Shown here: positions 31,971 to 46,300 of the stretch, piece by piece
Layout: the number at the start of each line of letters is the position of its first letter
Position numbering within the stretch: position 1 is the first letter of the stretch
NCBI GenBank assembly: GCA_965224245.1
Contig: OZ245046.1
Location: 2,432,001-2,496,000, forward strand
Length of the DNA stretch: 64,000 nucleotides
Direction: 5' to 3'
Source: Candidatus Eiseniibacteriota bacterium
GTDB lineage: Bacteria; Eisenbacteria; RBG-16-71-46; CAZAMP01
Notes under the pieces: model-generated
What the model was told of the DNA's origin: nothing
Database searches by the model: none
The model's input: the letters and a program-made list of their open reading frames with translations, nothing else
Translations under genes and position numbers: made by a program

Positions 31971-32295
31971 GCTGAGCCTGTACTCCAGGTCGATGGTCTC
32001 GCCGAAGGCGAGCGTGATGGGTGGTGGAACGTCCATCGGCTGCGCGAAGATGCACTCGGATGGATGTCGTCGTCGAGCGTACGCTGCATATATGGCGCAT
32101 CGCGGGCGTCGTGTCCACTGTCGATCTCCCGGGAATCGCGCGCGACCATCCGTCGTGATCGGGTCGGGAGCGTGTGCTAGAGTGCCTCGTGCGACGTCCG
32201 AGCGTCGTCGGGCCGACACGCCGGCCGCCGGCGCACCGAGCCCACGCGCGCGCGATCATCCCGGATTAAACAGACACTTCCACCGGACGGTGACG

Positions 32296-34071
32296 ATGCT
32301 CGACCGCCCCAGGCCGCCTCGTCCACCGCGGACACGCGGCGCGTGGATCGGCCTCTCGCTCGGCGCCCTCCTGGCGCTGGCAGGGCCGGCGTCACGACCC
32401 GCGGCGCTCGCCGAGACCCTCACTCTCACCCCCGAGTGGTCGGTCGACACCGGCGGATGAATCTTCGCCAACCCCGAGGTCTCGGGGGATCGGGTCTACG
32501 TCGGATCGTGCAACGGGCGGTTCCAGTGCCGCGACCTCACCGACGGCTCGATCCGGTGGAGCTACGACGTCAGCGCCGACGGCGAGGCCCGGAGCTTCCA
32601 CGGGAACATGCTGCTCCAGAAGAACGTGATCCTCGTCGGCACCGACCCCGAGGACGGCTACCTGTACGCGTTCGACCCGCAGACGGGCGAGGTACGCTGG
32701 AAATGGTGGGCCGCTCCCGGGATCGGTACCGACCTGGTCGCGGGGCCCGATCTCGTCTACGCGGTGACGCTGGACGACGTGCTCGTGTGCCTCGACCTGG
32801 AGACCGGCGCCGAGCAGTGGCGCAGCGTCCCCGAGACCACCGTCAGCTCCATGCTCACGCGCGGATCCACCCCGGCGCTCGAGGACGAGACGATCGTCTT
32901 CGCCGGCGTGGCGGGCCGCGTCCAGGCGCTGGACGCGCGGACCGGCGCCGCCGGGTGGTCCACCGAGGTCGGGGGGCCGGTGACCACGTCGGTGGCCCTC
33001 CATCGCTCACGAGCGCTCGTCGGAACCGAGGCCGGCGTGCTCCACGCGCTCGATCGCACCACCGGGACCGTCCTCCGTTCGGTGTCGCTGCCCGGCTCGC
33101 CGCGCGGCGAGATCGTCACGACCGAGGCGGGGCTGGTGGTGCTCGTCGGCGAGGACGGCTGGCGAGCACGGCTGGTCGCGCTGGACGACGATCTGACCGT
33201 CGCGTGGGAGAGTGTCGCCACCGACGGCTCGCTCTGGACGAGCGCCCGCCCGACGCGAGCGGGCCGGTGGATCCTGGTCGGCACGGCCAGCGGCGAGCTG
33301 GCCGCGATCTCGTCCGACACCGGCGAGACCGACTGGACACTCCCGATCGAGCCCATGCGCGACTGGACCGGGGACGGCATCCGGAGCGCCTCCATCGTCG
33401 CCGGCCGCCTCATCGTGGGCACGATCGCCGGGCGACTCACGTCGTATCGACTCCCCCCGGAGATCCTGGCCGGGGCCGGGCCCGTTCGGCGGCCCCGCCC
33501 GCGTCCGGTGGCCATGGCGCCCACGTGAGCCGGCTGACCCGGCGAAGGGTCGCCGCTTCGGGGAAGCGGCCTGGATCACGACTGGACGGTCTCGCTGCGG
33601 TACGTGGATACCGGAACCGATCGGGCTCGCTGGCGTTCCACGATCAACCGGCGCGTGCTGCCGACGCTCTCGCTCGGGATCGAGTTCAACCCGGTCGTCG
33701 GCGAGGTCGGTCCGCTGGTCACGTGGTTCTTCGTCGGTGAGGGGCATGGCACACCCGCCGTCTTCGTCGGCACCAGCTCCGATCGGATCGGAACCGACGA
33801 GGGCGAGCAGAGCTACTACGCGACGGCGACCAAGCGGCTGCCGTGGTGGCCGGTCTCGGCCTACGTGACCGCCAACTACTCCGAGGCGGACGAGTCGTTC
33901 AACGTGCCCTTCGGGGGCACGATCAACCTCACCGAGACGCTGTCGATGCGTCCGATGTACGATGGCGAGCGCACGCATCTGATGGCCACGGCGGCCACCG
34001 AGCGGTTCGCGGTGTCGCTGATCGCAGTCTGGCTGGAGCGGGTCGGCGTCTCGGTCTCCACGGGCTTCTGA
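32296..34071 (+). CDS. Putative triple-selenocysteine protein (591 aa): signal peptide, PQQ-repeat beta-propeller (Sec55), UxxU linker (Sec411, Sec414), C-terminal beta-barrel-like domain
   Basis: Track ORFs 31906..32460, 32608..33528 and 33604..34071 are in one frame, separated only by TGA at 32458, 33526 and 33535. Intervening codons are open and protein-like. A SECIS-like hairpin follows each TGA. Confidence 0.75.
32472..32487 (+). promoter_or_regulatory. Bacterial SECIS-like hairpin for TGA 32458-32460
   Basis: TGA + 11 nt + CCCCGA-GGTC-TCGGGG. Confidence 0.75.
33540..33570 (+). promoter_or_regulatory. Two overlapping SECIS-like hairpins for the UxxU codons
   Basis: CGGCGA-AGGG-TCGCCG (33540-33555) starts 11 nt after TGA1; GCCGCTTC-GGG-GAAGCGGC (33552-33570) starts 14 nt after TGA2. 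Confidence 0.65.
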
Positions 34072-34097
34072 AGGTCTCGACCACGAGGATGGCGTCA

Positions 34098-34769
34098 ATG
34101 CGCAAGCTCGTCCGTCACGCGATCGCGATCGTCGCGGTCGCCGCCTGCACCGCCGTGTTCGCCGATCCCGCCGAGCACCCGGACGAGGCGGTCTGCCGCA
34201 CGTGCGAGATCCGTGGCGGCGGGCACGGTCTCGAGAAGGTCGCCGCACACCGGGAGTACGAGGGCACGTTCTACTACTTCTGTGACCCGGGCTGTGCGGA
34301 CGCGTTCGATGCGTTCCCCGAAGCCTACGCCCACCAGCCCCTCCCGAGGCCGGCCCCCGACGTCACGTTCACCTCGCTCGACGGCTCGTCCGTTCCCCCG
34401 AGCGCGCTTCGCGGGCAGCACGTGCTCGTGGACTTCTGGGCCACGTGGTGCAAGCCCTGCGTGACGAGCATCCCCAAGCTCGTCGAGATCCAGGAAGAGT
34501 TCGGTGAGCGGGGCTTGCGCGTGGTCGGGGTCTCGATCGACGAGATCGAGGCCGATCGCGTCCGTGCGTTCGTCGACGAGAAGAACATGGCGTACACCGT
34601 GGCGCTGGACGGCGGCGACGAGCCGGCCTGGCTGGCCTATCGGGTGGCCGCGATTCCCGCGGCCTTCCTCGTCGATCCCGACGGTCGCATCGTGGCCGAG
34701 TGGAAGGGGGCGGTCGATCCCTCGCGAATCCGGGCCGAGATCGCCGACCGGCTCGGGGGGACGGACTAG
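34098..34769 (+). CDS. Exported YHS-domain + TlpA-type thiol-disulfide oxidoreductase fusion
   Basis: Signal peptide; VCRTC...YEGTFYYFCDPGCADAF YHS/TRASH domain; VDFWATWCKPC, IPAAFLVD. Confidence 0.88.
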   Translation: MRKLVRHAIAIVAVAACTAVFADPAEHPDEAVCRTCEIRGGGHGLEKVAAHREYEGTFYYFCDPGCADAFDAFPEAYAHQPLPRPAPDVTFTSLDGSSVPPSALRGQHVLVDFWATWCKPCVTSIPKLVEIQEEFGERGLRVVGVSIDEIEADRVRAFVDEKNMAYTVALDGGDEPAWLAYRVAAIPAAFLVDPDGRIVAEWKGAVDPSRIRAEIADRLGGTD

Positions 34770-44869: not shown

Positions 44870-46300
44870 CTACCGCACGACGACGATCCGATGCACGGCC
44901 TGCAACAACCCGTTTCGCAGCCCGACGTGATAGACCCCGGGCGCAACCCGGCGTCCCAGGCGATCGGTGCCGTCCCAGAGCACGTCGCCGGCGGCGGTGG
45001 CGATCGGCGAGGCGATCCGCCGGCCCGACGCGTCGACGACGACGGCATCGGCGCCCACCAGCGCATCGCCGACGATGAGATGGACCGCGCCCCGCGTCGG
45101 GTTCGGCGTCAGCGACCGCAGCAGCACCGGGGAGGCCGGCGTCTCGGCGACCGAGATCAGCGGGTCGCCCTCGGCGACGTACACGTTCCAGCTCCCGCTC
45201 GAGTCGTCGCACCACGCAACCGCCACCTCGCCCCCGGAGTTCGTGGTCACCGACGGCTCGCGCACGTCGCGTCCGATCCCCAGCTCCTGATCGAACGTCC
45301 AGGTGCCCGAGAGATTCCAGGCGACGATCAGACGCTCGTCGACCATCGACAGCGACTCGTCCCAGGACTCGTGTCGCCACGCGAGAACCGGCCGTCCGAC
45401 CTGGGTCAGGTGCAGCCACAGCTCCTGCGGCCACTCGAACAGAGTTCCCGTGTGTCCGGTGCCGATCGCGTCGGCGTCGCCGAACGCGCCACCGGTCCCC
45501 GTCGCGACGCTCACCTGGTTGCACGGACACGTGGGCTGCTGGCCGTGCGCGGCCAGCGCCATGGTCCACGTGTTCGGGTCGACGGCGAGATCGAAGCGGA
45601 TACCGGCGCCCTCCATCACCGGCGATGCCGGCTGCCACGTGGTGCCGTCGAACTGGCGTCCCTGCACGCCGGGGAACGCCGCCCCCGTATCGAGCCAGGT
45701 CACCAGCAGTCGATCCTCGGCGTCGACCGGGCTCAGCTCGACGGAGAGTTCACCGATCGGATCGACCGCGATCGGTCCGGCCAGGATCAGCGGCGCGGAC
45801 CACCCCTCGGTGACGAGCTCGGAGAAGAGCACGTGGAAGACGCCGCTTCCCTCGTCCAGCTCGGCCCAGGCCACGTGGGGCCCCGAGGCCTTCGCGGGAG
45901 ACGGATCGATCGGCGTGCCGAGCCCGGCGCTCCCGACCACGTCGGCGTCGTGCCACGTCCCGCTCTTCCAGCTCCGGAAACGAACCTGATCGGCGTCGTC
46001 TGACCAGACGACGTAGATCTCGTTTCACCTGAGACAGGTGTAGTGGTCGAAGTCGTGCCCGACGCCCACGGTCTCGATTGGACCCCATCCCCCCTCGCTC
46101 TGGTCCTGGTGGAGGATCTCGTCGCCTTCCTGCCAGAGCAGGTGCCGGACGTCGAACGCGTCGGTCGTGAGGATGGGAGCCGTCGACGGGATCGGCGTCG
46201 TGGTGTGCTGGGTCTCGATCCACCCGGCCGCCACCGGCGACGAGACCGTCGCCAGGAGCGTGACGACCGCGGCGGCGCCGACGGGGCGTGGCGCGGGCAT
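44870..46300 (-). CDS. Putative selenoprotein (476 aa): secreted beta-propeller-like protein with CxxU (Sec92) and FlgD-Ig/T9SS-like CTD
   Basis: Track ORFs 46025..46300 and 44870..45940 are in frame; the only stop between them is TGA 46025-46027 in HYTCLR-U-NEIYVVW. RBS GAGGAGG, signal peptide, CTD PNPTRG...WDGTDRLGRRVAPGVY. Confidence 0.8.
45994..46013 (-). promoter_or_regulatory. Bacterial SECIS-like hairpin for TGA 46025-46027
   Basis: Minus strand: TGA + AACGAGATCTA (11 nt) + CGTCGTCT-GGTC-AGACGACG. Confidence 0.8.

Follow-up and report, generated by a model that had tools for sequence, protein, structure and literature searches.

One conserved SECIS-like hairpin as the probable decoder of two neighboring UGA codons in an unannotated family of predicted outer-membrane barrels

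How might two UGA codons that lie only three codons apart both be read as selenocysteine (Sec) in a bacterium? The question is raised by a gene in a 64,000-nucleotide (nt) window of a Candidatus Eiseniibacteriota genome (contig OZ245046.1, positions 2,432,001 to 2,496,000; "the window" here means this whole stretch). The sequence ACG TGA GCC GGC TGA CCC (33523-33540) places two TGAs, codons 411 and 414, in one coding frame, and would specify a U-x-x-U (UxxU) motif in which U is Sec. An earlier reading of the sequence alone had taken it that one Sec insertion sequence (SECIS) could not serve both codons, and had proposed a relay between two overlapping hairpins. Hairpin 1 would serve UGA411; the ribosome would melt it; and the freed bases 33552-33555 would let hairpin 2 serve UGA414. 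Comparison with relatives points elsewhere: hairpin 2 probably acts as a single SECIS for both UGAs.

The gene has three in-frame TGAs, at codons 55, 411, and 414 counted from the ATG at 32296, and a stop at 34069-71. The window is about 70% G+C, and long open frames therefore carry little weight. However, between about 32420 and 34099 the G+C fraction at third codon positions (GC3) of one phase never leaves the range 0.78-1.00. Coding thus runs through both TGAs, since GC3 stays high without a break in one frame. On re-reading, the TGA positions, the codon numbers 411 and 414, the hairpin coordinates, and the 33552-33555 overlap given by the sequence-only reading all proved exact. A search of sequencing runs matched four DNA runs of one study, with no RNA run listed. 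Contigs of other organisms in runs X2 and X4 match positions 33520-33574 only (55 nt, 5 differences); this segment, which holds UxxU and hairpin, is the part of the gene best conserved at the nucleotide level across community members.

The TGA pair recurs in relatives. The 177 codons 3' of the second TGA find matches in 10 of 61 related genomes, each open for exactly 177 codons, and upstream of the match all ten loci have (A/T/V)P(T/S/A)-TGA-x-G-TGA-PGEG. Scanning a single genome for each species added 78 loci. The labels of their metagenome-assembled genomes are Eisenbacteria, Thermoanaerobaculia/Acidobacteriota, Poribacteria, Latescibacterota, Gemmatimonadota, Krumholzibacteriia, KSB1, Calditrichota, Methylomirabilota, and others. 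The pattern TGA-NNN-G(G/C)N-TGA-CCN-GGN-GAR-GGN is present in 87 of the 88 loci, across about ten phyla, and the lone exception (L098) is a stretch that starts within the gene. At the peptide level the form is P-(T/S)-TGA-x-(G/A)-TGA-PGEG. The 88 loci include seven duplicates between two sources; over the 76 nt used for alignment, 80 sequences are distinct. One row comes from the unpublished genome G053 (loci L019 and L238), and its motif stretch is identical in the public record L034; none of the conclusions depends on this row by itself.

The 206 genomes from the window's own phylum, all of one class, yield 45 matches that span the motif (in 44 genomes), each with two TGAs; besides these there are only fragments and a degraded second copy in G089. 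Degraded-looking members are limited to that copy (G089:C144:27588-28087, L258), which has a frameshift and a TAG, and to L097, in which frame and hairpin are lost just after the motif.

Homologues with cysteine (Cys) supply the complementary evidence. Among 1.84 billion representatives a profile search found 231 matches, most of them starting 3' of the TGAs. The full-length Cys homologues P0014, P0019, P0037, P0035, and P0082 read PT-C-A-G-C-AGEA, and P0015 and P0033 also have C-A-G-C. In four of these (Table 1), Cys aligns column for column with both TGAs. The Cys forms make up one clade (support of 100 in the Shimodaira-Hasegawa-like approximate likelihood-ratio test, SH-aLRT, on a quick tree), and every Sec form seen is UxxU. 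The claim of a real U-x-x-U motif is therefore upheld by 87 of 88 loci and by C-x-x-C at the aligned columns; the residues seen in homologues are C-A-G-C in the Cys forms and UxxU in the Sec forms. No TGY occurs at either site among family members in the 206 genomes of the phylum. A metagenome scan with an IUPAC pattern for a UxxC form returned at least 119 stretches, and none of the 80 loci fetched belonged to the family, the pattern being too unspecific. The protein P0011 has C-V-G-W-PGEG here; possibly it is a CxxU form whose TGA was rendered as W in translation.

The genome encodes the decoding apparatus: SelB (324 bits against a cut-off of 242) and tRNA-Sec (71.9 bits against a gathering score of 47), with one tRNA-SeC(tca) called by aragorn. 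SelB is found in 180 of the 206 phylum genomes and in 38 of the 45 that are family-positive, and co-occurrence therefore does not discriminate. By the usual criteria both TGAs are Sec codons, and Sec insertion at them can be inferred, because a conserved in-frame UGA, Cys homologues, a SECIS-like hairpin, and the Sec machinery come together.

Hairpin 2 begins 14 nt 3' of the second TGA, within codons for A-P-L-R-G-S-G. Its core has 7 base pairs (bp; 33553-33559 with 33563-33569) and a GGG loop; folded alone it reaches -12.5 kcal/mol (z -3.39, 0 of 200 shuffles as good). Both hairpins were scored on a gap-free alignment of the 80 distinct sequences, to which all counts out of 80 refer. Column c is window position 33519+c, so that hairpin 2 pairs columns 33-40 with 44-51, and hairpin 1 pairs columns 21-26 with 31-36. 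For hairpin 2, 93.3% of cells are paired, and seven of its eight pairs have changed on both sides, in 39 cells. None of 500 shuffles scored as high in pairing and covariation, and controls slid along the alignment were 36-66% paired. U39 is matched by A45 in 12 of 15 sequences, and A36 by U48 in 7 of 9; such compensatory changes arise in several separate clades. The hairpin is still present in clades where the peptide is different (APVGGxG; QLLGSS or VLLGSS). RNAalifold predicts its 7-bp core as the sole substantial helix. The loop is GGG in 61 sequences, GUG in 14, and GUU in 4. Covariation over the 80 sequences thus bears out the sequence-only reading of hairpin 2 as SECIS-like, and shows it to be conserved. 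At gathering score Rfam gave no hit over the window, and a permissive Rfam search of 33490-33620 gave only a chance-level L31 leader match on the opposite strand. A mini-stem, CCC/GGG (columns 19-21 with 28-30), was also considered and set aside; it holds no covariation information.

The consensus for bacterial SECIS elements, as set out in section 5 of PMC13188914, comprises a loop of 3-9, a stem of 4-16 bp, a G among the first two loop bases, a distance of 16-37 nt from UGA to loop, and an energy of at most -7.5 kcal/mol. Hairpin 2 in the window lies inside all of these limits, with 7-8 bp, GGG, -12.5 to -13.6 kcal/mol, and distances of 31 nt (UGA411) and 22 nt (UGA414). The premise that two elements are required was therefore unneeded. 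The consensus holds for both UGAs with the same geometry in 73 of 80 sequences; in four sequences of one clade, hairpin 2 lies nearer by 4-5 nt, at 26-27 and 17-18 nt. This suggests a model in which SelB bound to hairpin 2 would deliver Sec-tRNA first at UGA411 and, three codons on, would deliver again at UGA414, with hairpin 1 needed for neither.

What, then, of hairpin 1? The relay that it would initiate is unlikely, and its attraction lies in geometry and pairing. The stem starts 11 nt 3' of the first TGA and the loop lies at 17 nt, a working distance: both values equal those of the SECIS at codon 55 of the same gene, and the second falls in the 16-21 nt of the genome's best candidates. In the window hairpin 1 folds at -8.6 to -9.3 kcal/mol (folded alone -8.6, z -2.59, 6 of 200 shuffles as good). 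Its covariation score is reached by 6 of 500 shuffles; the fraction of paired cells is 75.0%, where shuffles give 73.6% and 10 of 500 equal the observed value. Values of this size, however, can come from the kinship of the sequences in the absence of structure. Relatives form at most 5 bp, against 6 bp in the window, the sixth pair (columns 26-31) being present in only 3 of 80. Three of the five family-wide pairs (22-35, 23-34, and 25-32) are dictated by amino acids, through the GG of Gly, the CC of Pro, the G of Glu, and the C of Ala. All five form in 49 of 80 sequences, and breaks go uncompensated: of the 20 sequences with A at column 33, 13 have C at column 24 and 5 have the compensating U. 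Nor does hairpin 1 accompany the first UGA everywhere. Two clades, 8 of 80 sequences, have no hairpin 1 potential and retain both UGAs (L018, L037, L039, and L066; and L094, L095, L099, and L100; SH-aLRT 99 each, quick tree).

Energetics argue in the same direction. The two hairpins share four bases, and in this sequence each excludes the other. In 77 of 80 sequences hairpin 2 has the greater stability (means -12.7 against -5.2 kcal/mol), its pair probability in the window is about 0.85 against about 0.13 for hairpin 1, and hairpin 1 is absent from the RNAalifold prediction. When a UGA occupies the A site, about 11 nt downstream lie within the ribosome (PMC4513850, section 21). With UGA411 in that site both hairpins would lie outside, and therefore the stronger hairpin 2, favored by about 7.5 kcal/mol, should form. 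A conserved second SECIS and a two-hairpin relay are thus not borne out: covariation and conservation, the checks that had been called for, favor hairpin 2 and the TGA pair and go against hairpin 1. Hairpin 1 is probably in large part a by-product of the P-G-E-G-A/S-P codons.

Several points weigh against a single SECIS. The distance of 31 nt for UGA411 is long for this organism, in which eight candidates chosen by eye and codon 55 have 16-21 nt. The clades that lack hairpin 1 represent two events, not eight. The energy of hairpin 1 reaches -7.5 kcal/mol in 28 of 80 sequences, a count that can be set against the relay and against a single SECIS alike. At the Pro wobble position in column 21, 62 of 80 sequences have C, where each gene's codon usage would predict 20; pair 21-36 accordingly forms in 69 against 27.4 expected, and pair 24-33 in 52 against 36.1. 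However, wobble columns 3, 15, 21, and 24 (33522, 33534, 33540, and 33543) all prefer C and avoid G beyond codon usage (chi-square 40, 43, 128, and 31, respectively), and columns 3 and 15 lie outside hairpin 1 yet show the same G-to-C shift. This bias around the UGAs is read here as regional rather than as proof of hairpin 1 pairing; Sec decoding may call for such a context, pairing with the C-rich arm of hairpin 2 may be selected against, or hairpin 1 itself may be the cause. No UxxC or CxxU members with DNA were found by which either hairpin could be tested singly. These same observations leave some room for a true switch in most lineages, although it appears rather unlikely. A transient hairpin 1 would recruit SelB; unwinding would release the shared CCG; and hairpin 2 would recruit a second SelB. 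The clades without hairpin 1 would then have shifted hairpin 2 upstream (type 2), or would accept a lower yield.

Other explanations do away with double Sec altogether. Decoding of one or both UGAs as Cys or another residue, for example by a SECIS-dependent tRNA of the tRNA-ReC type, would give a mature CxxU, UxxC, or CxxC, and the sequence cannot distinguish such decoding from Sec. PMC13582414 points out the same limit of sequence data, and reports that tRNA-ReC-like genes are enriched in genomes with UXXU hydrogenases. In the present genome one of the aragorn calls is an unusual tRNA-Cys(GCA) of 80 nt whose anticodon stem has 6 bp (G000 C1:4940935-4941014, plus strand), in addition to a normal 76-nt tRNA-Cys elsewhere. 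The unusual call could be a tRNA-ReC-like gene or a false one; its D arm is poorly paired. The genome has canonical tRNA-Sec and SelB, and the lack of TGY at either site in the phylum argues that Cys is not equivalent there. Decoding of this kind is improbable.

That the gene simply ends here is hardly credible. The TGA at 33526 would stop a propeller gene, the second TGA would be chance, the hairpins would form a terminator, and a new gene would start from GTG 33604. This is how gene callers see it: the database product of the window is a 138-amino-acid (aa) fragment (P0217). There is no run of T 3' of the hairpin. Against an ordinary gene end, the peptide around and between the TGAs (APT-U-SG-U-PGEG) is conserved across phyla; Cys homologues read straight across, as does the unbroken GC3; and the signal peptide of stand-alone members sits upstream of the TGAs, leaving a separate downstream piece with none. 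A broken gene, or an error of assembly or sequencing, would suit the fact that the propeller fusion was found in this genome alone (0 of 87 other loci); this too is scarcely tenable, for the TGAs are conserved in all relatives, and Logan contigs, which a different assembler built from three runs of a single sample, cover 32200-34200 with no difference (the sample is the same, and the DNA is not independent). One SECIS, hairpin 2, serving two Sec codons remains the most probable account.

The protein itself is of interest. Within one open reading frame (ORF), its domains run in the order signal peptide, PQQ-like beta-propeller, Pro/Arg linker, UxxU, and barrel (Table 1).

Table 1. Features of the double-Sec locus, its neighbor, and one further candidate selenoprotein in the window
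Feature	Position	Strand	Evidence or remark
Single ORF, 591 codons + stop	32296..34071	+	translation with TGA=U
Probable signal peptide, MLDRPRPP...LALAGPASRPAALA	32296..32412	+	judged by eye from translation
PQQ-like (BamB-like) beta-propeller domain	32413..33447	+	Pfam PQQ_2 5.7e-40; homologues align to ~residue 384
TGA codon 55 of propeller, DTGG-U-IFANP	32458..32460	+	TGA aligned in 5/5 covering phylum homologues
Codon-55 SECIS-like hairpin, CCCCGA-GGUC-UCGGGG, 6 bp	32472..32487	+	11 nt to stem, 17 nt to loop
Pro/Arg-rich linker, …GPVRRPRPRPVAMAPT	33448..33525	+	aligns with mature N-terminus of stand-alone members
First TGA of UxxU, Sec411 (predicted)	33526..33528	+	conserved in loci; Cys aligned in P0014, P0019, P0037, P0035
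Second TGA of UxxU, Sec414 (predicted)	33535..33537	+	same evidence as first TGA
Hairpin 1, CGGCGA-AGGG-TCGCCG, 6 bp	33540..33555	+	weakly supported
Hairpin 2, GCCGCTTC-GGG-GAAGCGGC	33552..33570	+	covariation, RNAalifold, folding energy
Predicted 12-strand transmembrane beta-barrel, ends ...STGF	33583..34068	+	AlphaFold2 model + Foldseek
Partner: signal/lipobox-like N-terminus, YHS, TlpA/ResA-like redoxin (WCKPC)	34089..34769	+	Pfam
Candidate selenoprotein, 476-aa ORF with signal peptide	44870-46300	-	TGA 46025-46027, HYT-C-L-R-U-NE (CxxU)

Stand-alone members have a signal peptide (read by eye) about 45 residues before the first TGA, then a Pro/Arg-rich stretch, UxxU, and a domain of about 165 residues that ends in G-F; the C-terminal F (F196) is kept in at least 90% of alignment rows. 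The UxxU plus barrel segment matched no Pfam or NCBIfam family at E up to 0.1, and a profile of the family had no hit among PDB sequences. Public databases hold 644 related proteins at E up to 1e-5. Among the 120 matches listed, lengths are 128-181 aa, none has a Pfam domain, and all are truncated and either unnamed or called "hypothetical protein". A large group of "hypothetical proteins" of about 175 aa from Pyrinomonadaceae, Armatimonadota, and Thermoanaerobaculia (such as P0232, P0233, P0222, P0242, and P0246), 35-43% identical to the barrel, begin with M/V-(V)-R-G-(S/T)-(G/A), where Sec forms have P-L-R-G-S-G. They may be further Sec forms clipped by gene callers.

An AlphaFold2 model built with 82 sequences (mean predicted local distance difference test, pLDDT, 83.7; predicted template modeling score, pTM, 0.80) has 12-13 strands over residues 35-195; its first 30 residues, with UxxU and PGEGAPLRGSG, score only 50-61. 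The Foldseek matches are all transmembrane beta-barrels: a designed 10-strand barrel, FapF, KdgM, NanC, OmpG, and OEP21. The best mutual score is for KdgM 4fqe (TMq 0.57, TMt 0.64, root-mean-square deviation 4.5 over 177 columns). Language-model neighbors bear barrel-type names, which is a lead only. The family is thus predicted to comprise secreted small outer-membrane barrels of about 12 strands, with a flexible N-terminal tail of about 30 residues, P-T-U-x-G-U-P-G-E. Outer-membrane barrels of the small-porin type generally have their N- and C-termini on the periplasmic side; the tail and its UxxU pair should therefore face the periplasm.

The neighboring gene offers a clue to function. The partner starts 17 nt after the UxxU-barrel gene; its ATG (34089) was picked by eye, and searches ran on 34095-34769. 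Pfam identifies AhpC-TSA (1.3e-21) and YHS (1.4e-07), and NCBIfam ResA/TlpA matches fall below their cut-offs. With the window proteins as queries, the redoxin part was found in 61 and the YHS part in 58 of the 87 other loci. They nearly always follow on the same strand, at a distance of 5-380 nt, and several of the loci without a match are at the end of a contig. Of 57 redoxin motifs found, 56 read WCxPC. Moreover, the Cys forms P0015 and P0033 have two YHS domains fused ahead of the CAGC-barrel. Synteny plus fusion thus tie the U/CxxU/C tail to YHS and a periplasmic thiol reductase. The YHS and TlpA-like redoxin would keep the UxxU pair reduced, or would exchange a soft metal with it. A tentative best guess is that the tail is redox-active or binds a soft metal, and that the partner keeps this site reduced.

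The propeller is peculiar to this genome: none of the 87 other loci has one beside the family, and the long open frames that precede other members are Arg-rich and spurious. The barrel part of the window copy has no signal peptide of its own and runs on from the propeller. No longer fused homologue was seen among 8000 candidates scored, which is weak evidence. The propeller carries the third TGA, codon 55, and its homologues share the context D-T-G-G-U-(I/V)-F...V-G-S-C. In each homologue a hairpin lies 11-12 nt 3' of the TGA, with a GGUC loop in 5 of 6, and its stem shows compensatory changes: CCCCGA/UCGGGG, CCCCGC/GCGGGG, and GCCCGC/GUGGGC. With no NCBIfam hit above cut-off, the propeller is a second unannotated family of putative selenoproteins, and the fused polypeptide is predicted to have three Sec. 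The fusion messenger RNA would hold a canonical codon-55 SECIS next to the double site, and thereby provides an internal standard.

The organism appears rich in candidate selenoproteins. A genome screen for an in-frame TGA between two stretches of coding-type composition gave 123 candidates, 22 with a model-conforming hairpin. Eight of the 22 were chosen by eye: five of a UxxC thioredoxin type and three with GGUC or GGA loops, all with the loop at 16-21 nt. In the other 14 the hairpin lies 18-36 nt from the TGA. Candidates on G000 C1, several of them thioredoxin-type UxxC and all with hairpins 16-21 nt downstream, are at 4437671(+), 4920231(-), 4827150(-), 2704515(-), 319722(-), 5236936(-), and 308150(+). 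A CxxU candidate within the window (Table 1) has a hairpin, CGUCGUCU-GGUC-AGACGACG, with its loop 19 nt 3' of the TGA, and a weak C-terminal FlgD_ig as its sole Pfam match. A screen of the genome for tandem in-frame TGAs gave four candidates, none with a hairpin; the filter was too strict, and missed the present locus.

Together, these results describe a widespread family, known from over 80 loci in genomes of about ten phyla, most of which are uncultured, and with both predicted Sec in every Sec form seen. Annotation pipelines currently overlook all three Sec codons. Its fold and location, a periplasmic tail on a porin-like barrel, are not among the selenoprotein families found in reviews, and synteny and fusion to YHS and TlpA-like domains lead to the hypothesis of an envelope redox or soft-metal system. 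How bacteria read two UGAs spaced this closely was posed as an open question in 2026; the family supplies 80 natural variants for it, including two clades with altered hairpins. Escherichia coli recodes a single UGA at 30-40% (PMC4513850); with two or three UGAs in succession, either little full-length product is made or the system must be efficient.

The closest precedent is found in Group 4 [NiFeSe] hydrogenases, for which PMC13582414 (2026) describes UXXU variants and raises the possibility of a single SECIS for both UGAs. As in the present family, two UGAs lie three codons apart, followed by one conserved SECIS-like hairpin and served by canonical SelB. The settings are different. The hydrogenase motif is the cytoplasmic Ni-binding CXXC site of a large enzyme, and CXXU, UXXC, and CXXC relatives are interleaved in its tree. 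In contrast, all Sec forms of the present family are UxxU, in the disordered tail of a secreted barrel, and the Cys forms are a separate clade.

Other UxxU families are listed in PMC13188914 and PMC9312934: a Prx-like thiol:disulfide oxidoreductase (PF00578), NF041115 (a metal-binding "putative mercuric reductase"), and an FmdB type (TIGR02605). A Prx-like family with UxxU was also reported from GOS data (PMC2398784). Like these, the present family would encode UxxU by means of two UGAs, and its role is presumed to involve redox chemistry or soft metals. Unlike these, it is predicted to be a transmembrane barrel rather than a thioredoxin or HMA fold, and it has no match to the PF00578, NF041115, or TIGR02605 hidden Markov models. 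The family is not mentioned in the full-text literature and the BSepDB and deep-Sep passages searched; supplementary tables may list it under another label.

The E. coli fdhF SECIS, as described in section 13 of PMC8659212, likewise is a GC-rich hairpin within the coding region 3' of the UGA, and its upper stem-loop starts 11 nt after the UGA. Its apical loop, too, is small and begins with G. The hairpin 2 stem, in comparison, starts 14-15 nt downstream of UGA414 and 23-24 nt downstream of UGA411, has a GGG or GUG loop, and has no bulged U. Unlike the fdhF element, it is proposed to serve two UGAs.

The predicted 12-strand fold, signal peptide, and C-terminal Phe are like those of the KdgM/NanC small porins (PDB 4fqe, 4pr7, and 2wjr). 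Identity to those porins is 8-11%, they have no Sec or Cys tail, and membership in their family is not claimed. Two further systems serve as analogies only. Eukaryotic SelL has a UxxU that can form a diselenide, in a thioredoxin fold, with its SECIS in the 3' untranslated region. In the TlpA-ScoI/CoxB system, a periplasmic TlpA-like reductase keeps a metal-binding Cys pair reduced; its targets are Cys proteins. UxxU in bacteria is thus already known, and what is new is an unannotated, putative double-Sec family of porin-like type. It stands out in its apparently obligate double Sec; its predicted outer-membrane barrel setting; its YHS-TlpA module; and, in this genome, its triple-Sec fusion.

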